Virus record (IMG/VR): IMGVR_UViG_641522650_000010
Length of the DNA: 14,905 bases
Source of the DNA: a virus
Lineage: Duplodnaviria; Heunggongvirae; Uroviricota; Caudoviricetes
Direction: 5' to 3' (one strand)
Numbering within the stretch: position 1 is the first letter of the stretch; every line of letters starts with the position of its first letter. The translations under genes were made by a program, and so were the position numbers. Positions 7,595 through 14,905 of the stretch are shown piece after piece. A model generated the notes under the pieces. That model was given only the letters and a program-made list of their open reading frames with translations, made no database searches and was not told the origin of the DNA.

Positions 7595-7670
7595 TGGTGG
7601 CCCTTGCTGGATTTGAACCAGCGACCTGGCGATTATGAGTCGCTCGCTCTCACCACTGAGCTAAAGGGCC
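7595..7670 (-). tRNA. tRNA-Ile2 (anticodon CAU, lysidine type; ileX/ileZ-like); tRNA-Met cannot be excluded from the anticodon alone
   Basis: Manual fold: perfect acceptor ggccctt/aagggcc, D-arm gctc agtggtga gagc, anticodon loop cTCATAa, T-arm gctgg ttcaaat ccagc, encoded CCA; closely resembles E. coli ileX as I recall it. Confidence 0.8.
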
Positions 7671-7719
7671 GGGAGCAGAATAATAATGGTGCGTAATTAA
7701 TTCTGCAATCTCATCCGTT

Positions 7720-8769
7720 TCAAACGATTAAATCCTGAACTTCCCTGACTGTCTGCTCAAAACGTCCGGTCTCCAGTTCAACGCCAATCGCACGACGCCC
7801 GAGCGCCAGTGCCGCTTTTACCGTTGAACCTGAGCCCATAAAAAAATCTGCAACCTGGTCTCCCGGACGACTGCTCGCGTTGATTATCTGCTGCAACATT
7901 TCTGCCGGTTTTTCGCACGGATGTTTCCCTGGATAGTACTGCACCGGTTTATACGTCCACACATCGGTGTACGGCACCTGCACCGTCACACCGAAATACC
8001 TCCGCAAATTTTTATATTCACTCAGCAGTTCCATATACTGCCGGCTCAGCTCACTGTATGTGCTGACCAGTTGGTAATGGGACTTTTCCAGTTCTCTCCG
8101 CTGATGTTTCTCTTCTGCCACCCGGGCAAACAGCGACTGTAATTTCAGATAATCGCTTTCGTTCGGTAGCTGCCACTGACTGGCACTGAACCAGTGCGAC
8201 ACCATGTTTTTCTTTCCTGTGGCATCTGCAATCTGTTTTGCCGTTATCCCCAGGGCAGCTCGCGCATCACGAAAGTAAGCAATCAGCGGGGCCATCACAT
8301 GCTGTTTCAGTACCCTGCCCTTCGCCGCATACCCGGCATCTTTCGGACGATACGGCCCCTGATAATGTTCCGCGAACAGAATGCGCTCTGTGGCGGGGAA
8401 ATACGCCCGCAGGCTTTCCTTGTTGCATCCGTTCCAGCGTCCGGACGGCTTCGCCCAGATAATATGGTTCAGCACACTGAAGCGTTCACGCATCATGATT
8501 TCGATATCAGATGCCAGGCGATGACCACAGAACAGGTAAAGACTTCCGGCAGGTTTCAGCACCCGCCAGAACTGCGCCAGACACTGGTCCAGCCACTTCA
8601 GGTAATCATCGTCGCCCTTCCACTGGTTATCCCAGCCCTCAGGCTTCACTTTAAAGTACGGCGGGTCCGTGACTATCAGGTCAACAGAATTTTCGGGTAA
8701 CGACCGGATAAATTCCAGGCAGTCGGCGTTGATTAACTCACAACTGGATATTTTTACAGTATTAAGCAT
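7720..8769 (-). CDS. Orphan DNA methyltransferase, beta-class amino-MTase (N6-adenine or N4-cytosine)
   Basis: 349 aa; motif IV DPPY near the N-terminus (DLIVTDPPY) and motif I FxGxG near the C-terminus (DFFMGSGST), the beta-class order, with a long insert between. No adjacent restriction endonuclease candidate. Confidence 0.85.
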   Translation of the reverse strand: MLNTVKISSCELINADCLEFIRSLPENSVDLIVTDPPYFKVKPEGWDNQWKGDDDYLKWLDQCLAQFWRVLKPAGSLYLFCGHRLASDIEIMMRERFSVLNHIIWAKPSGRWNGCNKESLRAYFPATERILFAEHYQGPYRPKDAGYAAKGRVLKQHVMAPLIAYFRDARAALGITAKQIADATGKKNMVSHWFSASQWQLPNESDYLKLQSLFARVAEEKHQRRELEKSHYQLVSTYSELSRQYMELLSEYKNLRRYFGVTVQVPYTDVWTYKPVQYYPGKHPCEKPAEMLQQIINASSRPGDQVADFFMGSGSTVKAALALGRRAIGVELETGRFEQTVREVQDLIV

Positions 8770-8801
8770 GGATCATTAAACCTGTCTCTGATAGGCTCAT
8801 T

Positions 8802-8820
8802 CTGCTTTTGCGCAAAGCAG
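8802..8820. promoter_or_regulatory. 19-bp imperfect palindrome 33-51 bp upstream of the methyltransferase start; candidate operator
   Basis: ctgcttttgcgcaaagcag: symmetric arms around a central GCGC. Placement fits a repressor/controller operator, but no binding data. Confidence 0.3.
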
Positions 8821-8863
8821 TGGGCCTGAGGTTTGCTTGTGAACCCAACGCATGAGCAGATGG

Positions 8864-8890
8864 CTGGTGGGTGCCCCTAACACCCACCAG
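8864..8890. other. Perfect 10-bp stem / 7-nt loop hairpin next to the upstream terminator
   Basis: ctggtgggtg (8864-8873) and cacccaccag (8881-8890) are exact reverse complements; loop cccctaa. Confidence 0.4.
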
Positions 8891-8904
8891 CCGCCCATTT
8901 ACCA

Positions 8905-8933
8905 CAAATAAAAAAGCCTTCAGGACTGAAGGC
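8905..8933 (-). terminator. Rho-independent terminator overlapping the stop codon of the small HTH-like ORF
   Basis: Minus-strand reading gccttca-gtcc-tgaaggc (7-bp stem) followed by ttttttatttg. Confidence 0.55.
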
Positions 8934-9117
8934 GTCTGTAACAACCGAACTGATAGTCTGCCAGACCCGCCATAACAAGTTGGGTCAGTATTAACTGACA
9001 GCGTTCGCGTGAAAGGTAAGTATTCTGCGCAATCTCCCCGACTGTCGCCGGTTCGGTGACGCTTAATTCATTAAACACCACTCTGGCGGTTTCTGTCATA
9101 TCCTGCTGTTTCAGCAT
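8920..9117 (-). CDS. Hypothetical small protein (65 aa) with a possible helix-turn-helix
   Basis: Internal ATG at 9117..9115 preceded by AAGGGAAAAAGAC; product MLKQQDMTETARVVFNELSVTEPATVGEIAQNTYLSRERCQLILTQLVMAGLADYQFGCYRRLQS. The segment TVGEIAQNTYLSRERCQLIL looks like an HTH. The ORF-track version (8920..9210) starts at an upstream GTG that overlaps the tR'-like terminator, which I consider less likely. Confidence 0.4.
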   Translation of the reverse strand: MLKQQDMTETARVVFNELSVTEPATVGEIAQNTYLSRERCQLILTQLVMAGLADYQFGCYRRLQS

Positions 9118-9239
9118 GTCTTTTTCCCTTTTCCGGTTAACGTGACACACCAATAACTCTTGTCGAAAAAGCCAGCAAGCTGAAAGACAGGTATTCACCG
9201 CCACCAGCACGTTTACTGTACTGGACCGATTTCAGCCAT

Positions 9240-9261
9240 AAAAAAACCCGCTCGCGGCGGG
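9240..9261 (-). terminator. Rho-independent terminator about 70 nt downstream of the Q gene (tR'-like)
   Basis: Minus-strand reading cccgc-cgcga-gcggg followed by seven U (plus-strand A-run 9240-9246). Confidence 0.55.
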
Positions 9262-9332
9262 TTTAAGCTGTGTGGCGAAGTAACCACTCTTAACATACTG
9301 ACATACTTTTTGCGGACCGCACTAATCATTTT

Positions 9333-9713
9333 TTACTTTTTTAGCAGCCAGTCGTCCATCTCCAGTCTTACCCCCAGCACAGACAAACATCCGTCAATAA
9401 ACCCTTCGGCTATCTGCATCTCAATTCGTATTGCTTTTTCGCTTTTCTTTCTCGTCCTGGCTATCTGTCTTTTTGATATTCGCAACAAATAATGAGCAAT
9501 GAGAAGCGAATACTCCTCAGGTTTTTTCTGCTTCAGACGAGCAAGACAGTTTTCAATGATAAGTCCGTCATCATCGCAGCAGGCCGGACGTGGTTTAGTG
9601 GCAGATGGTAAAAGTCCTTTGAATCCGGCAGCGATCGGAGAATAGTCCACCCCGGTGTTACCACTTGCAGCCCATGCCCCCCAGCGTTCAAGAACCATCT
9701 GAATATCACGCAT
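9333..9713 (-). CDS. Late-gene antitermination protein Q (QuuD-like)
   Basis: ATG at 9713..9711 with GGAG RBS; product MRDIQMVLERWGAWAASGNTGVDYSPIAAGFKGLLPS...CCDDDG... resembles the small Q antiterminators of E. coli cryptic prophages as I recall them. The ORF-track TTG start at 9728 adds 5 residues and is less likely. Confidence 0.75.
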   Translation of the reverse strand: MRDIQMVLERWGAWAASGNTGVDYSPIAAGFKGLLPSATKPRPACCDDDGLIIENCLARLKQKKPEEYSLLIAHYLLRISKRQIARTRKKSEKAIRIEMQIAEGFIDGCLSVLGVRLEMDDWLLKK

Positions 9714-9730
9714 CAACTTTCTCCACAAAA

Positions 9731-10726
9731 TCAGGACAGCACACCAATCGCCAGCGCGCGATCGATAAAACGAAATATCAGCTCCAGTTGGGAGCCATAC
9801 TTCTCTTCAAATGCCACGGTATCCGCATGCAGTTCGTCATGGTGTTTTCTGCACAAAGGCAACACAAAAAGGTCATGCGCTTTTGTTCCCATTCCACCCT
9901 GACCGTGACCTATCAGGTGGTGGGGATCATCAGCGGGCTTTCCACAACATGCACACGGCTGTGTCTTAACCCAGCGCGTGTACTTTTCATTAACCCAGCG
10001 GCGACGTTTTGGGCGTAACATAAAAGACTCCGGCGACTCCGGATCCACTTTCAGCGCCAGCACCTTTTTCGCCTTATCCTGGATGATGCTGGTGGCAGGA
10101 ACCGAAGGCACAAGGTCACTTTCCCGGGTAACAGTCGGCACAACAGGCTTCGGTAATCTCAGTGCCTTACGGGCTGCACTTTCCGGTAAGGCATCCGCCA
10201 GATCATTACGAATCAGCCACCAGCACAGTTCCGGCATTGTCACAACGTGACTGTCATCAAAACCGAGATCCCGACGCACAACAGACAACACCCAGCGGGC
10301 ACAGTTATCCGTTGCCATTGATTCCAGCCGTTCCGTGAACTGGTCACGGAGAAGATTGTCACAGTGCCAGCACAGACGGATTGCACCCGGAGCGTGTCGC
10401 ATTGTGGTCATGTTCTCGCTGTGCCAGTCGGAATGAGGCCACTGGCAGCCTTTTTCACGAAGTAACCAGCTTTCAAGACATTCCACGCCACCAGCACGAC
10501 GGATCACTTCCTCATTGCGGAACACGGCCCGAACGGCAGGATCATCCGCCAGCGGTTGTGATGCCGCCGGAACGGCACCACTGGCGAAAGATGAATAACG
10601 CTCCGGCTCAGGCTCCAGCAGGACACGCCCCTGCATAAACAGGGGCATCAGCTCTGAACCTGGTCTGAACAATACGATCCCCATACGCGGGGCAATTTCA
10701 GGGGTCAGTAGTGCTCTCACGGTCAC
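9731..10726 (-). CDS. DUF968-family prophage protein (YdfU-like) with C-terminal Cys/His cluster
   Basis: 331 aa from a GTG start one nucleotide after the upstream stop; C-terminus QPCACCGKPADDPHHLIGHGQGG...LCRKHHDELH has CxxC and paired His residues like HNH/zinc-binding nuclease folds. Position directly upstream of Q matches the Qin-prophage ydfU-quuQ arrangement as I recall it. Confidence 0.65.
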   Translation of the reverse strand: MTVRALLTPEIAPRMGIVLFRPGSELMPLFMQGRVLLEPEPERYSSFASGAVPAASQPLADDPAVRAVFRNEEVIRRAGGVECLESWLLREKGCQWPHSDWHSENMTTMRHAPGAIRLCWHCDNLLRDQFTERLESMATDNCARWVLSVVRRDLGFDDSHVVTMPELCWWLIRNDLADALPESAARKALRLPKPVVPTVTRESDLVPSVPATSIIQDKAKKVLALKVDPESPESFMLRPKRRRWVNEKYTRWVKTQPCACCGKPADDPHHLIGHGQGGMGTKAHDLFVLPLCRKHHDELHADTVAFEEKYGSQLELIFRFIDRALAIGVLS

Positions 10727-10727
10727 C

Positions 10728-11537
10728 TCAATGAACGGTATCGAGCAGCTTTAACAGCTCAGGGAATCGGGATTCGAAGAAATGCGGCTGCGTCTCGCGC
10801 GGATTTGCAGGACAGGTGATGTTCTTGCCGAACATGCAGCCTTTCGCTGTCAGCGACCAGAATTTTTTGATGTTGTTAATCGCGGTACGGCTGTATCGTT
10901 CGCGCTGCTCGACGATCCCCAGCTTAACCATCTGGTGATATGCCTGATTAGCCGTAAGGCGGATACCATACTGTTTCAGCAGTGCACTCAGCGACAGCGT
11001 GGGGCGACTTGAGCCATCAGGCGCGTCAGCAGGAGCATCAATGGCATAGCGCGGTGCCAGATTCGGTAAGCCAACAGCCTCCTGGAGTTTCTGACAGGCA
11101 CCAAGCACTGAAGAGTTAGACAGGTTTAATTCCCGGCGCATAAAGTCCAGCAGAATCACACCAGCCTGCATCTTGTCAGCAGCCTGTCCGGATAATTTTT
11201 CCGGTGCGCTGGTTACCATGTCGAAAGTACGGATCACCTTCAGATGGAATGACGGGCTGATCCACATTGCATAGGCATACACCAGTTCCTTGCAGACATA
11301 CGTTCCCCGTTCATTTCCCCCATGAATCATACTCACCGGGTCAACACCCAAATTCTGGGTGTTGGTCAATTCATAAACAAGCTCAACAGTTTGTTGGCTG
11401 GAAATAAACTTTCCCGGCTCCTTGGTTCTGGCATTTGCACCAGATGCTACTGCTGCGCGATGCAGATCGTTCAGGCTGTAACGCCCATAAGCATCACGAC
11501 GAACTTCAATACCATCAATGACCATCAGATTATTCAT
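10728..11537 (-). CDS. KilA-N domain protein (Roi/antirepressor-like)
   Basis: ATG at 11537..11535 with strong RBS AAGAGGAGAAACGAAGT; N-terminus MNNLMVIDGIEVRRDAYGRYSLNDLHRAA... typical of KilA-N/Bro-N DNA-binding domains. The ORF-track GTG start at 11570 would overlap rusA by 14 nt. Confidence 0.7.
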   Translation of the reverse strand: MNNLMVIDGIEVRRDAYGRYSLNDLHRAAVASGANARTKEPGKFISSQQTVELVYELTNTQNLGVDPVSMIHGGNERGTYVCKELVYAYAMWISPSFHLKVIRTFDMVTSAPEKLSGQAADKMQAGVILLDFMRRELNLSNSSVLGACQKLQEAVGLPNLAPRYAIDAPADAPDGSSRPTLSLSALLKQYGIRLTANQAYHQMVKLGIVEQRERYSRTAINNIKKFWSLTAKGCMFGKNITCPANPRETQPHFFESRFPELLKLLDTVH

Positions 11538-11556
11538 ACTTCGTTTCTCCTCTTGA

Positions 11557-11946
11557 TCAGGCGGCTGCACCCGCCGTTTTCTCGTACTTACTGATAGTGA
11601 TCTCGACCTTCCCTTTCGGGATAACCGGTCCCCACTCCACCAGCATTCTTTTCACCTGACTGTCGTCTTCCCACACACCCGCGTGGGTCAGGGCGTCAAA
11701 CAGCGCCTTGTTATAGTTGTCCAGATCGCGGATCCGGTTATCCGGAGGAAACAACACGATCTCCACTGAAGCAGGTGCCGACGTTGGTTTCGGCAGACGA
11801 CGTAACTGCTCAACTATTGCTGCGCACGCCGCGCTCTGGAATTTTCGCCCCGCCGCGCTTATCAGGCTCTTACCAGCAAACGCCCCTTTGTTGGGGTGTC
11901 GCCAGTACGTGTTCACGCTGGGCGGAAAAGGCAGTATTAGCTTCAT
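11557..11946 (-). CDS. rusA: Holliday-junction resolvase RusA
   Basis: 129 aa; MKLILPFPPSVNTYWRH... and DLDNYNKALFDALTHAGVWEDDSQV match RusA-family motifs; ATGA-type overlap with the upstream gene. Confidence 0.85.
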   Translation of the reverse strand: MKLILPFPPSVNTYWRHPNKGAFAGKSLISAAGRKFQSAACAAIVEQLRRLPKPTSAPASVEIVLFPPDNRIRDLDNYNKALFDALTHAGVWEDDSQVKRMLVEWGPVIPKGKVEITISKYEKTAGAAA

Positions 11947-12596
11947 GCCACCATCTCCCTGACCAGTTTTTCCGCCTGCTGGCGAACCTGCGCCAGAAAT
12001 GCCTCACCACATGCCTCAAGTTCATCGCGCCCGATGTAGCTGATTGCCGGTCCCTTCCAGGTCTTGTCGAAAACAGCAATAGCACCAGCGAAGAAAGCAC
12101 CTGTTGGCACCTGCTTTTCGTCTTTCGGGATAAACCAGGCAGGCAGTTCAAAACCAATACGCCCGCGAATAAAAGCAATATGATCTGCATCTTCCGGCCA
12201 CCACACTTCGCTGGTGGCAGCTTTGATCAGGAAAACATAGCGCCCGCCTTTATCACGCATGGCACTGGCATGCTTCATGATGTAACGCATGCCGATGATG
12301 TATTGCCCCTCATGCTGACTGGCGCGGCTGTACGGGGGATTGCCAAAGGCAGCACCTTTAAGCTCCGCAAGACGTTCTGACCAGTCATGCGCCAGCGCGT
12401 TGTCTTCCGCCGTGTAATACGCGGCACATTTGGCGTTATCACCGTCAGTGAACAGATCCAGAACAAACGGACCAAACAAGGTGTTAATTCCCCAGAAAAT
12501 GTTGTCCGGCGTGCGCCACTGATCGCCCACTTCCTTCAGTTCATGGGCTGGTTTGTTCCGCAGTTCCACCAGCGCCTGGCAATATTTATTACTCAT
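11943..12596 (-). CDS. Phage-type DNA N6-adenine methyltransferase (Dam-like), orphan
   Basis: ATG at 12596..12594 gives 217 aa MSNKYCQALVELRNKP...; catalytic motif FGNPPYS; stop/start overlap TAATG with the upstream gene. The ORF-track GTG start at 12629 is less likely. Confidence 0.8.
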   Translation of the reverse strand: MSNKYCQALVELRNKPAHELKEVGDQWRTPDNIFWGINTLFGPFVLDLFTDGDNAKCAAYYTAEDNALAHDWSERLAELKGAAFGNPPYSRASQHEGQYIIGMRYIMKHASAMRDKGGRYVFLIKAATSEVWWPEDADHIAFIRGRIGFELPAWFIPKDEKQVPTGAFFAGAIAVFDKTWKGPAISYIGRDELEACGEAFLAQVRQQAEKLVREMVA

Positions 12597-13084
12597 TAAG
12601 CCCCCACGTAATTCCCTGACAGATACCACTCATCACCCGATACAGCGCGCTTACTGCTTTTCCGTAAACACTGCTCACGACGCGCCAGAAAATTGTTTCG
12701 TTCTGGCTGGGAGTGGCTTTCACGGAATGCCGCCATCCACACCGTTGCAGCACGACGGTATAAGCCCCTGGACTCCAGTTCTTCCGCCTGGCGGGTCAGG
12801 CACAAAATCTCCCGCGGGTCGTTAGTGCCGACATAGAAATTGCGCACAGGTCTGGTTTCACGAACTGGTTGCGGTTCCGCCTCCTGCGCTCTCTCAGTCA
12901 GGCGCGGGAAATGTCTGCGTGTATCCCCTTCACAACGGTGAGCCACACGACCACTCTGACGTAATTTGCTTGCTGACTGCAGAACGCACTGCCGTGAGTA
13001 ACCTGCAAAAGCATCCGCAATGTCTCCGGAAGTACACCCCGGATGGGCTTCAATGAATTTCTGAACTTCATTCAAAAGACTCAT
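12596..13084 (-). CDS. PerC-family-like putative transcriptional regulator
   Basis: 162 aa; C-terminal half has ESRGLYRRAATVWMAAF...REQCL, resembling the GLWRRAA..W....R..CL signature I recall for PerC/Pch proteins; ATGA overlap with the O-like gene stop. Confidence 0.45.
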   Translation of the reverse strand: MSLLNEVQKFIEAHPGCTSGDIADAFAGYSRQCVLQSASKLRQSGRVAHRCEGDTRRHFPRLTERAQEAEPQPVRETRPVRNFYVGTNDPREILCLTRQAEELESRGLYRRAATVWMAAFRESHSQPERNNFLARREQCLRKSSKRAVSGDEWYLSGNYVGA

Positions 13085-13905
13085 AATCCCCCCCTGAATC
13101 CTGCCGGGATCTGGCTGTAGTCCACGTTGTCGTAACTGGCTTTGAAGTACGGGTCCTCGCGTCTGGCTGCAGATACCGCAGGAACTTCCCAGGATTCTTC
13201 GAAATGACGATCTGGACCAAAGAACGTGACAGCCTGTTTCACAAATTGTGTGCCGCTATTGCCCATCGCAGATACCCAGCCCGCGTAGCGTTTCACACCT
13301 TCCAGCATGGTTTCGGGGTTTACCCCCTCGTTCAAACGGGCTTTCCAGGCTTTGAAGGCTGCAGATTTTGAATTGCCACCAGCACGTTTGGGATATGCCA
13401 GCCATGCCTGCTCAAACTCCGGAGAGTATTCCGGTCGGTTTGAACGAACTCGCACGGACTCATCAACTGATGCACCAACAGCTATTGGTTCATTGACTGG
13501 TTCTTTGACTGGTTCAAAAGAGTGACTGGTTCTGGGTGAATCTCCTGCACTACCCCTTGGTGCAACTCCTGCACTACCTGGTGAATTTGCTGCACCAGAT
13601 AGTGAATTATTTGCACTACCCCCTAGTGAATCTCCTGCACCATCAAGATGAAGGAGATAGATATTACTTGAGTTACCTTTTTCACCTTTCCGGGTGACTT
13701 TTTTTACCCGCCCGGACTCACAAAGGGCCGCAATATGATTCATCACAGAACGTTTGCTAATCTCGCACTGGTCAGCAATATGCTGGTAGCTGGGCCAGCA
13801 CTCACCCTGATCGCTGGCATTATCAGCCAGCTTAATCAGAACCAGTTTTCGCAATGGATTTCCCACTCGAATTTTCATCGCTTTAACCATCAGCTCCATA
13901 CTCAT
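13081..13905 (-). CDS. Replication initiation protein, O-like (N-terminal HTH, Gly/Ser/Ala-rich linker encoded by iterons, C-terminal domain)
   Basis: 274 aa; RBS GGAGGTG; N-terminal HTH-like LRKLVLIKLADNASDQGECWPSYQHIADQCEISKRSVMNHIAAL; repetitive linker GDSLGGSANNSLSGAANSPGSAGVAPRGSAGDSP coincides with nucleotide direct repeats, as with lambda O and its origin. Confidence 0.6.
   Translation of the reverse strand: MSMELMVKAMKIRVGNPLRKLVLIKLADNASDQGECWPSYQHIADQCEISKRSVMNHIAALCESGRVKKVTRKGEKGNSSNIYLLHLDGAGDSLGGSANNSLSGAANSPGSAGVAPRGSAGDSPRTSHSFEPVKEPVNEPIAVGASVDESVRVRSNRPEYSPEFEQAWLAYPKRAGGNSKSAAFKAWKARLNEGVNPETMLEGVKRYAGWVSAMGNSGTQFVKQAVTFFGPDRHFEESWEVPAVSAARREDPYFKASYDNVDYSQIPAGFRGGL
13535..13645. 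repeat. About five imperfect direct repeats (iteron-like, 21-24 bp) inside the O-like gene; candidate replication origin
   Basis: Recurring GTGAAT...CTCCTGCAC(T/C)ACC units at about 13535, 13559, 13580, 13601 and 13624; moderately AT-rich DNA follows at 13645-13700. Confidence 0.5.
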
Positions 13906-14243
13906 GCAGCACCTCCGAGATGCTTCATGTTTTTTCCGGAGCGAAAGGCTATAAGCGGCATACTGATGCGGTAATTACGGCCCAGCGGTTCACAAATCAC
14001 CTTCTGACATTCACGGTCAACCAGGCTAACACGTAGAACATGCCCTGCAGGCGTGGTGTACTACTGACCCGGACGAGGACAACGGAAAGTCTGATTGGTA
14101 AACCGTTTGAAAATATTCCGGATCATTTGCGCCCCCTTACCTCTGAAGGGTTCAGCGACAAATTTATGAGGCAGGCCAGTGCCGAAGCATCATTAATATA
14201 GTCATACAAGCTAACAGCCAGCGGAGATTCGGCTTTTGCCAAC

Positions 14244-14905
<662 letters not shown>

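Follow-up and report, generated by a model that had tools for sequence, protein, structure and literature searches.

The window analysed here, meaning the whole stretch of 14,905 nucleotides, is 100% identical to CP001063.1, which we take to be the genome of Shigella boydii CDC 3083-94. Its features, including two methyltransferase genes among lambdoid phage genes and flanking insertion sequences (IS), are the following:

1..4826, no strand assigned: IS nest (an element of the IS66 family, an orfB of the IS3 family and, at 3496-4826, a strain-specific IS of 1331 bp) that truncates the late side of the prophage.
7421..7670, minus strand: phage genes for three tRNAs (Met/CAT, Arg/TCG, Arg/TCT), following the beta-class methyltransferase gene.
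7720..8769, minus strand: intact gene for a beta-class adenine methyltransferase of the M.EcoGII/M.EcoGI type, 349 aa, predicted to be non-specific (PF01555).
8916..8933, minus strand: second terminator-like hairpin, directly preceding the beta-class methyltransferase gene.
9244..9264, minus strand: terminator-like hairpin with a T-run just downstream of Q (tR'-like); a terminator is annotated at the same position in phage SfV.
9333..9728, minus strand: antiterminator Q gene (PF06530, E 1.6e-52).
11557..11946, minus strand: rusA Holliday-junction resolvase gene (PF05866), with its ATG overlapping the TGA of dam (ATGA).
11943..12596, minus strand: dam, intact gene for a phage Dam-type N6-adenine DNA methyltransferase, 217 aa (PF05869 / TIGR01712).
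12294..12296, minus strand: codon ATC of dam, Ile101, a derived T101I change according to the alignment of homologues.
12327..12347, minus strand: FGNPPYS codons in the translated dam ORF, residues 84-90, catalytic motif IV.
12596..13084, minus strand: PerC-domain ORF, 162 aa (PF06069, E 1e-9), equivalent to SfV orf40 and translationally coupled to dam, its TAA overlapping the dam ATG (TAATG).
13081..13905, minus strand: replication-initiator-like HTH protein, 274 aa (HTH_36, DnaD_N), the first gene still intact in what survives of the early-right operon.
14244..14905, minus strand: IS3-family element in place of PR, cro, cI and all other sequence that preceded the replication genes, with the transposase reading in the same direction as dam; prophage homology stops at 14243.

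The gene at 11943-12596, for which a preliminary description had proposed a Dam-like enzyme with the motif FGNPPYS, is indeed an intact ORF. Its start was placed at the ATG at 12596 and not at the GTG at 12629, because every homologue begins MSNKYCQ. Two family models match the product above their curated cutoffs and over nearly their full length. Pfam PF05869 'Dam' gives E 9.8e-46 and 156 bits (cutoff 28.1) over model positions 3-167 of 169, and TIGR01712 (phage_N6A_met), an NCBIfam equivalog, gives E 1.5e-76 and 255.6 bits (cutoff 97.05) over all 165 model positions. The product also matches the PADLOC model MTase_II with E 1.6e-157, and by a wide margin the family match is far beyond chance. 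All the invariant motifs of the family are present: TP, D47, N54-K56-C57 (NAKC), NPPY and G145-R146..F149 (GR..F). These come from an alignment of eight members from phages of Proteobacteria and Firmicutes, in which N86, P87, P88 and Y89 are invariant as far as PamA of S. aureus and the lactococcal phage Dam. The length of 217 aa and the alignment are consistent with a compact single-domain Dam that would have no separate target-recognition domain, a view drawn only from length and alignment because the AlphaFold2 model, built on 34 sequences of 76-99% identity, was unusable (mean pLDDT 40.7, pTM 0.31). A sequence search of the PDB gave zero matches at E up to 1, and neither sequence nor profile searches produced a meaningful match or a solved homologue there. 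The antisense and overlapping ORFs across 11775-12825 had no meaningful family matches. The gene is carried by 2120 of the 5426 complete E. coli genomes. The window dam is an intact copy of the gene for a long-known phage adenine methyltransferase, most likely of GATC specificity, and the finding is real but ordinary.

The Dam of phage SfV (orf-41, AAL89443.1), whose gene is named dam / DNA adenine methylase in the GenBank record, has the same length as the window protein and shares 215 of its 217 residues, the window version having I101 for T and A153 for V. Dam activity was reportedly described for orf-41 in the SfV paper. The two genes occupy the same place, between the PerC-like orf40 and rusA/nin, and a beta-class methyltransferase gene follows Q in both; the SfV counterpart of the 274-aa HTH protein is orf39, annotated as 'replication protein'. 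The window differs in that SfV orf42, a small ORF with a LexA DNA-binding domain between dam and rusA, is missing, and in that its dam lies in an IS-bounded remnant whereas the one of SfV is in a phage. Copies of the SfV Dam are also present in SfII, cdtI, mEp460, 1720a-02 and the Stx2c/Stx2a phages. The window Dam is identical to that of 1720a-02 at 214 of 217 residues and to WP_000066918.1, from an apparently complete prophage of E. coli 2014C-3011, at 216. The gene order dam ... rusA-KilA-N-DUF968-Q-small ORF-beta-class methyltransferase is common to SfV, 1720a-02, E. coli prophages and Stx2a_1447. In SfV, 1720a-02 and the Stx2 phages the two methyltransferase genes are ~3-5 kb apart, dam among the replication/nin genes and the beta-class gene after Q. 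The pairing of dam with the M.EcoGII-type gene has been described before, as a module conserved in SfV-like and Stx2-like lambdoid phages.

More distant relatives were found by tblastn and BLASTP in the S. aureus mosaic phi11 (the PamA locus, 36.8% identity to the window Dam) and in the lactococcal 936 group, and the Dam of phage T1 matched with E 2e-9. PamA, M.Phi93DAM and T1 Dam (and HP1/HP2 Dam by annotation) share the core W/x-TP, LD...NAKC, NPPY and GR(I/L)xF and are likewise orphan and phage-borne, but PamA, M.Phi93DAM and T1 Dam have only 24-39% identity to the window Dam, and the short distant forms (~140 aa) lack both the insertion after NPPY and the C-terminal helix of the 217-aa enterobacterial form. 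GATC activity has been found for PamA by DpnI assay, with NPPY mutants also made (PMC12435837), and M.Phi93DAM is GATC-specific by SMRT sequencing and DpnI/DpnII digestion (PMC4190342). From these two activities and the 99% identity to the SfV Dam we infer that the target of the window Dam is most likely GATC.

The same product, G-m6A-TC, is predicted for the window enzyme and for the host type of Dam (E. coli Dam and T4 Dam, alpha class, PF02086), which is also an orphan. However, no sequence relation of the window Dam to alpha-class Dam, DpnM included, was detected (no PF02086 match and no solved Dam structure at E up to 1), and convergence on GATC has been stated for phage and bacterial Dam-like enzymes (PMC5537653). 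M.EcoMIV of EC958, a silent 'prophage Dam homologue', was considered as the same gene and rejected, as it is a PF02086 protein. STEC prophages contain another orphan annotated as adenine/GATC methyltransferase, the MT-A70 'phage Dam' of Stx2a phages (M.EcoGV / M.EcoPA8orf6770P), but it belongs to a different Pfam family (PF05063) and is located near the integrase end of the phage. 'Phage Dam' labels can mislead, since the MT-A70 'Dam' M.EcoPA8orf6770P of phage PA8 (phiPA8) was found to methylate 16S rRNA together with a partner, PNB-2 (PMC10810198). An identity of the window Dam with this Stx-phage rRNA methyltransferase was rejected: BLASTP against PA8 gp5 gave E 7.1, and gp5 is a PF05063 protein while the window protein is not.

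That the locus carries two unrelated amino-methyltransferases, as had been proposed, was borne out, since both genes are intact, they fall in PF05869 and PF01555 and BLASTP between their products gave E 1.9, that is, no detectable pairwise similarity. The 349-aa enzyme matches PF01555 (N6_N4_Mtase) with E 1.4e-43 over residues 29-340. It is assigned to the beta class because DPPY is near the N-terminus and FxGxG near the C-terminus, and the order DPPY, central helical TRD, FxGxG is the layout of the M.EcoGII family. Identity to M.EcoGII is 334/350 (~95%) when the reference is the sequence printed in the SUPREM supplement, which contains OCR errors; discounting the likely errors leaves ~13 substitutions. 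The enzyme is also 93% identical to that of phage 1720a-02, which has been named as very similar to M.EcoGII (PMC5778455). Judged by its sequence, the 7720-8769 product is an M.EcoGII orthologue. M.EcoGII has no target motif and methylates essentially any adenine (PMC5778455), and M.EcoGI/GII homologues at ~93% identity have been given as non-specific (PMC6602927). From the identity, context-independent adenine methylation would be expected also for the window enzyme, and the prediction of a motif from REBASE is moot for it because M.EcoGII has none. M.EcoGII and M.EcoGI of E. coli O104:H4 C227-11 have the same length of 349 aa, the same class (DPPY ... FxGxG) and are also orphan and prophage-borne, whereas the window allele, with its predicted activity, lies in a prophage remnant. 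M.EcoGII is silent in the lysogen and deleterious when constitutive (PMC5778455), and close relatives of the M.EcoGII type are silent in lysogens (PMC5778455; PMC4659465). The M.EcoGI homologue of EC958 has low-level transcription. The non-specific Hia5/Hin1523 family was rejected as a relative, these being alpha-class Dam relatives. Like dam, the beta-class gene is found in more than one third of the complete E. coli genomes. The window locus is not special in having the pair; the preliminary description had missed the SfV-like/Stx2-like phage module, the M.EcoGII identity and the remnant status.

No restriction endonuclease candidate had been seen in the window and our search agrees with this. 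Apart from the methyltransferase models, PADLOC gave no restriction-enzyme or defence match among the window proteins, save that the KilA-N ORF marginally matches PDC-S22, a candidate-system model (E 1.9e-05). The sole nuclease-like genes in the window code for RusA and for the DUF968 protein (with a marginal HNHc_6 match), both standard genes of the lambdoid nin region. A partner just outside the window was also looked for, and no endonuclease gene was found within 10 kb on either side in CP001063.1, where the flanks contain IS elements, genes with Pfam domains fitting host housekeeping and one 162-aa ORF with no family match. Around the dam of SfV and of E. coli prophages, and within the 24 kb of 1720a-02 that we examined, no restriction gene is annotated either. 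The window Dam is an orphan methyltransferase. The number of GATC sites in the window, 48, is close to the 55.5 +/- 7.4 expected, with neither enrichment nor depletion overall.

The locus had been described as a prophage, and the phage genes are there, but the term fits only in part. Homology to prophages is limited to 4827-14243 and a DUF1378 stub, and ~9.6 kb of phage DNA survives in CP001063.1, bounded and interrupted by IS elements. This remnant has no repressor, PR or operators, integrase, lysis or virion/morphogenesis genes, in which it differs from its complete relatives. The window locus is a dead, non-viable prophage fragment and not a functional inducible prophage. A consensus scan of the coding strand upstream of dam found no sigma-70-like promoter within the remnant, and the hexamers annotated as the dam promoter in SfV are here TGGCGC/TACGGA, which are poor. 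Visual inspection of the stretch from Q to the first terminator did not locate a PR' promoter with certainty. Because IS elements have removed PR/cI and the integrase, lysis and virion genes, both methyltransferase genes are probably unexpressed passengers, leftovers of the phage.

Our preferred reading, to which we give a probability of roughly 0.85, is that the window ORF codes for an orphan phage Dam of the PF05869/TIGR01712 family (that of the SfV, T1 and HP1/HP2 Dam and PamA), most likely acting on GATC, that had its role in the parent phage with an M.EcoGII-type partner and persists here as part of a leftover module. The enzyme would be a small single-motif (NPPY), S-adenosylmethionine-dependent N6-adenine DNA methyltransferase. 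In the parent lambdoid phage, dam would be a gene of the delayed-early rightward operon, preceded by the replication genes, followed by rusA/nin/Q and coupled translationally to both neighbours. From this position and coupling we infer that Dam would be made while the phage DNA replicates. Replicating lambda and P22 DNA is under-methylated by the host Dam (PMC8022706). The phage enzyme could keep the fast-replicating phage DNA fully GATC-methylated, which would protect it from methylation-sensitive GATC endonucleases in the next host and mimic the host Dam status. The M.EcoGII orthologue, located after Q and the two terminator-like hairpins, would be part of the Q-dependent late transcription unit and, by methylating adenines of almost every context shortly before packaging, would provide a broad anti-restriction cover. 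Its Q-dependent late position may be the reason why an enzyme of this type is silent and tolerated in lysogens. The layered protection against host restriction suggested in the preliminary description is thus reasonable for the parent phages. It can no longer be the role of the genes in this strain, because the prophage is an IS-eroded remnant in which both are probably silent. For epigenetic control of host genes, also suggested, the precedent is found only in a distant member of the family, PamA of S. aureus (PMC12435837).

It is possible, although we would not put it at even odds, that dam is a pseudogene in all but name, an intact ORF coding for an enzyme inactive or impaired by T101I, untranscribed since the promoter of the operon was lost to IS and with no function in this strain. 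Position 101 is Thr in all 120 cluster representatives of at least 76% identity to the window Dam and also in homologues from phages of Salmonella, Aeromonas and Proteus (42-49% identity), so that it is invariant in every long-form homologue examined. It sits in a subfamily-specific loop after NPPY, within the insertion that the short forms lack. Every Shigella copy examined (L006-L010) has Ile101, and T101I is the sole difference from the closest E. coli copy, the one in the apparently complete prophage. The substitution might reduce or alter Dam activity. The replacement of PR/cI by IS and the absence of a promoter-like site on the coding strand upstream of dam point in the same direction, as does the decay of the neighbours: a 74-aa ORF has a nonsense codon in the window strain, and sister strains have split versions of Q and KilA-N. 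On the other hand, the dam ORF, its start and stop coupling and all the invariant family motifs are intact, and one substitution of conservative size outside NPPY is no proof of lost function. Besides, read-through transcription of dam is possible because the IS transposase reads towards it.

Retention of the pair by the host for epigenetic regulation or for 'vaccine'-like protection from incoming restriction systems, and not for phage anti-restriction, seems to us very unlikely. Both methyltransferase ORFs are intact and identical in L006-L010 while neighbours have frameshifts or nonsense codons in some strains, but the Shigella copies share at least 99.6% identity across 10 kb, and in such a clonal set common integrity is no evidence of selection. 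PamA does reprogram host gene expression from a prophage (PMC12435837), but constitutive M.EcoGII is deleterious and the enzyme is silent in lysogens (PMC5778455). The Dam copy moreover has a derived change at an invariant site. Shigella would be expected to possess its own Dam, as reportedly described in the SfV abstract, and a second GATC enzyme would then be redundant.

We consider it highly unlikely that the Shigella T101I allele, with altered or relaxed specificity and low constitutive expression by IS read-through, adds non-GATC or extra adenine methylation to the host genome, or, as a variant, that the Q-dependent M.EcoGII-type gene of the remnant is activated in trans on induction of another resident lambdoid prophage and hypermethylates its DNA. 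If true, either would be a small example of remnant prophage genes taking part in methylation or in phage-phage interactions.

Finally, it is highly improbable that DNA GATC methylation is not the main activity of the PF05869 protein and that this protein acts on another substrate together with one translated alongside it (the PerC-domain protein upstream or, in relatives, the LexA-domain one downstream), as the tight TAATG coupling, the occasional PerC::Dam and Dam::LexA-domain fusion ORFs in databases and the PA8 MT-A70 enzyme with PNB-2 (PMC10810198) might suggest, given that the PA8 enzyme is an MT-A70 protein with no similarity to the window Dam, PamA and M.Phi93DAM methylate GATC when expressed alone, the fusions are rare (~20 clusters, each with 1-3 members, whereas the separate genes number in the thousands) and explained by a G5-to-G6 indel or by deletions, and the LexA-like ORF is missing here and from many prophages. 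A role of these neighbours as obligatory partners or as a recognition domain acting in trans was likewise not supported. The C-terminal extensions of Dam homologues in other genera are unrelated to the LexA or PerC domains.

Going back to the leftover phage module that we favour, its importance is small beyond correct annotation. Because the locus is a dead remnant, neither gene should be counted as an active epigenetic or anti-restriction function without expression data, and for the M.EcoGII orthologue methylome predictions should expect context-free m6A only if the gene is expressed. The 'Dam-like' genes of E. coli and Shigella prophages belong to at least three unrelated families (PF05869, PF02086 and MT-A70) with different demonstrated activities, and they should not be pooled.

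The two methyltransferase genes and the hairpins of the module are placed in the window as follows:

11943-12596, minus strand: dam, 217 aa, with FGNPPYS at residues 84-90 of the protein
12294-12296, minus strand: codon 101 of dam, changed by T101I
9264-9244, minus strand: terminator-like hairpin after Q
8933-8916, minus strand: second hairpin, between a small ORF and the M.EcoGII-type gene
7720-8769, minus strand: M.EcoGII-type partner methyltransferase gene, 349 aa, with a PF01555 match
7406-7389, minus strand: hairpin after three tRNAs

The dam ATG shares bases with the TAA of the upstream PerC-domain ORF (TAATG) and its TGA with the ATG of the downstream rusA (ATGA). An in-frame GTG is found 33 nt 5' of this ATG, and since all homologues begin with MSNKYCQ the ATG was taken as the start. 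The protein matched Pfam PF05869 "Dam" (E 9.8e-46, 156 bits; cutoff 28), the NCBIfam equivalog TIGR01712 "phage N-6-adenine-methyltransferase" (255.6 bits; cutoff 97) and, end to end, the PADLOC type II methyltransferase model. In the alignment with distant members all the elements of the family core (W/x-T-P, L-D...N-A-K-C, N-P-P-Y and G-R-(I/L)-x-F) were intact. On sequence grounds the family assignment is secure and, given the ORF, the FGNPPYS motif and these matches, the coordinates, motif and "Dam-like" label of the preliminary description are correct. The protein has neither a PF02086 match in Pfam nor a match in the PDB sequence search and is unrelated to host Dam or T4 Dam, so that "Dam-like" describes a predicted function and not orthology with host Dam. 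A G5 run (window 12597-12612) precedes the dam ATG. PerC-domain::Dam fusions of 379-380 aa appear in ~20 database clusters (proteins P0004-P0018); the 380-aa forms examined are explained by a G5-to-G6 insertion just 5' of the dam start, and the fusions probably reflect sporadic mutation or sequencing error and not design.

This dam is already known and very common. Its product is identical at 215 of 217 residues to that of Shigella flexneri phage SfV, at 214 to the copy in phage 1720a-02 and at 216 to the one that E. coli 2014C-3011 carries in a seemingly complete prophage. The gene was found in 42 phage records at 95-99% nucleotide identity (including SfV, SfII, cdtI, mEp460 and Stx2a/Stx2c phages) and in 2120 of 5426 complete E. 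coli genomes, and the family in 587 phage records of Proteobacteria and Firmicutes by tblastn. Allison et al. 2002 reportedly gave experimental confirmation of SfV orf-41 as a Dam methylase and are said to have noted multiple methylases in SfV. Distant family members are phage T1 Dam (E 2e-9), whose phage record links T1 dam to HP2 dam, the Dam of lactococcal 936-group phages and the S. aureus mosaic-phi11 methyltransferase (PamA). M.Phi93DAM, a relative of the 936-group Dam, carries NPPY as its only motif and is GATC-specific by SMRT sequencing and DpnI/DpnII digestion (PMC4190342). For PamA, GATC methylation and raised fnbA expression were demonstrated (PMC12435837); epigenetic control of host genes, one of the roles proposed earlier, has its precedent only in this distant protein.

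The partner protein has DPPY towards the N-terminus and FxGxG towards the C-terminus and so belongs to the beta class. It shows no pairwise similarity to the Dam-like protein, and the different families (PF01555 and PF05869) bear out the description of two unrelated amino-methyltransferases. M.EcoGII, which is commercially available as a reagent, is a characterised adenine methyltransferase of DNA and RNA that lacks sequence specificity. The partner was identical at 334 of 350 positions (~95%) to M.EcoGII as given in the SUPREM supplement, several of the mismatches being evident OCR errors in that text, and from this identity it would have no target motif to predict. The partner is also 93% identical to the enzyme of phage 1720a-02, named as a very similar relative of M.EcoGII (PMC5778455), and a STEC methylome study classes homologues at ~93% identity as non-specific (PMC6602927). 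M.EcoGII methylates adenine whatever the surrounding sequence, is unexpressed in the lysogen and is deleterious when constitutively expressed (PMC5778455); the EC958 M.EcoGI homologue showed low-level transcription. This type of gene was present in 1978 of 5426 E. coli genomes.

On the minus strand, a replication-initiator-like HTH gene is followed by the PerC-domain ORF, dam, rusA, a KilA-N ORF, a DUF968 (HNH-like) ORF, Q, the first hairpin, the small ORF, the second hairpin, the M.EcoGII-type gene, the three tRNAs, the third hairpin, an STnc100-like sRNA, a DUF1737 ORF and a SASA-family esterase. Because an equivalent order recurs in SfV, 1720a-02, E. coli prophages and Stx2a_1447, the dual-methylase arrangement is a conserved, previously described phage module and not a peculiarity of this locus. 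Terminators are annotated in the SfV record after Q and after the orf48 methylase. Read against the standard lambdoid layout, dam is part of the delayed-early PR operon with the replication genes, and the late unit under Q antitermination starts with the M.EcoGII-type gene. In SfV, 1720a-02 and many prophages a 108-aa ORF with a LexA DNA-binding domain separates dam from rusA (cf. 5678-6004 in the related locus L004). The window and the closest E. coli copies lack it, and there dam overlaps rusA directly (junction 11943-11946).

Several neighbours deserve description. The product of the ORF 5' of dam (12596-13084, minus strand) contains a PerC domain, of the LEE-activator family, and weakly matches the ANR family; prophage PerC/Pch-like regulators influence virulence genes in EPEC/EHEC. 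The DUF968 protein (9731-10726, minus strand), the sole uncharacterised nuclease-like gene of the module, has a C-terminus rich in Cys and His, matches the HNHc_6 nuclease model marginally (26.8 bits, cutoff 26.6), and did not match the restriction or defence models. The STnc100 sRNA (Rfam; 7141-7345, minus strand), between the phage tRNAs and the DUF1737 ORF, is full-length with 139.5 bits against a gathering score of 47. In close relatives stx2A/B lie downstream of the tRNAs; here only ~500 bp (6919-7420), with the sRNA and terminator-like hairpins, precede DUF1737 and the esterase, and the late region is an stx-less version of a Stx2-phage-like one, apparently at the yecE site. A 2.9-kb stretch (5890-8770) contains no GATC, with ~10 expected at the average density of the window; it takes in the esterase gene's N-terminal half, DUF1737, the sRNA and tRNA genes and all of the M.EcoGII-type gene, directly before whose ATG there is a single GATC (8771-8774). 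GATC-free prophage regions are known from the ST131 and O111 methylome papers.

The window was identical (100%, full length) to CP001063.1, which we take to be Shigella boydii CDC 3083-94, and an exact-protein look-up placed the locus in several NCBI assemblies, by their accessions Shigella. Phage-derived DNA is confined to ~4827-14243 and a DUF1378 stub near 3351-3495, ~9.6 kb in total. On the right it is cut at 14244 by an IS3-family element (14244-14905), and on the left there is a nest of IS (1-4826) with an IS66-family element, an IS3-family orfB and a strain-specific 1331-bp IS (3496-4826), the latter missing from five sister assemblies. Two sister strains have an IS110-family insertion at ~2415. 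By Pfam domains and order, the genes beyond the IS fit a host origin: one side has a molybdopterin oxidoreductase, two methyltransferase-domain genes and a MAPEG protein, the other an ABC fragment, a hexapeptide-repeat protein and a CymA-like protein. The oxidoreductase and the two methyltransferase-domain genes may be read as torZ-, cmoB- and cmoA-like. With the gene order around yecE, a location beside cmoA/cmoB-like genes fits yecE, where some Stx2 phages attach and after which the record of one related phage is named. A 74-aa ORF before the replication gene (13902-14126, minus strand), found also in sister strains and E. coli/SfV relatives, has an internal stop in the CP001063.1 strain, which points to continuing decay of the remnant.

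No restriction gene was found in the window or within 10 kb on each side in the source genome; the statement that the window has no restriction endonuclease candidate holds, and a partner just outside it, proposed as a refutation, was absent over that distance. The observation in the preliminary description is confirmed and its interpretation partly supported. The remnant has no repressor, PR, integrase, lysis or virion gene, and layered protection does not extend to it; because it can make no virions, both methyltransferase genes are most likely silent passengers in this Shigella remnant. The strand that carries dam showed no consensus promoter 5' of the gene inside the remnant; weak read-through from the IS is conceivable because its transposase gene points the same way.

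A functionally dead allele or operon is a tentative alternative that overlaps with silent passengers and does not exclude them. T101I, common to Shigella loci L006-L010, is the sole difference from the closest E. coli prophage relative. Thr101 was present in all 120 cluster representatives (>=76% identity) and in Salmonella, Aeromonas and Proteus phage homologues (42-49% identity), and residue 101 is located in a subfamily-specific insertion right after NPPY; the AlphaFold2 model was unusable (pLDDT 40.7) and PDB sequence and profile searches gave no solved homologue. Both methyltransferase ORFs are intact and identical across L006-L010. In the sister assembly L005 (GCA_002968185.1) dam is broken into two ORFs by a 1-nt deletion (6436-6437) in the C5 run of its NPPY codons; this assembly has 12 gap openings over 10 kb, and with so many other indels the deletion is likely an error and uninformative. 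Domestication of the methyltransferases by the host is very unlikely for these genes, and a partner-dependent enzyme acting on a substrate other than DNA, after the example of the phage PA8 MT-A70 enzyme, is hard to credit, as that enzyme belongs to a different family.

For the parent phages the layered protection put forward in the preliminary description is reasonable. Host Dam lags on lambda and P22 DNA (PMC8022706), and we infer that the phage Dam, produced together with the replication proteins, would keep the fast-replicating phage DNA fully GATC-methylated. The M.EcoGII-type enzyme would be released solely by Q antitermination and would methylate adenines broadly before packaging, so that many m6A-sensitive type I, II and III enzymes may be blocked, as demonstrated in vitro with M.EcoGII methylation for several type II enzymes (PMC5778455).
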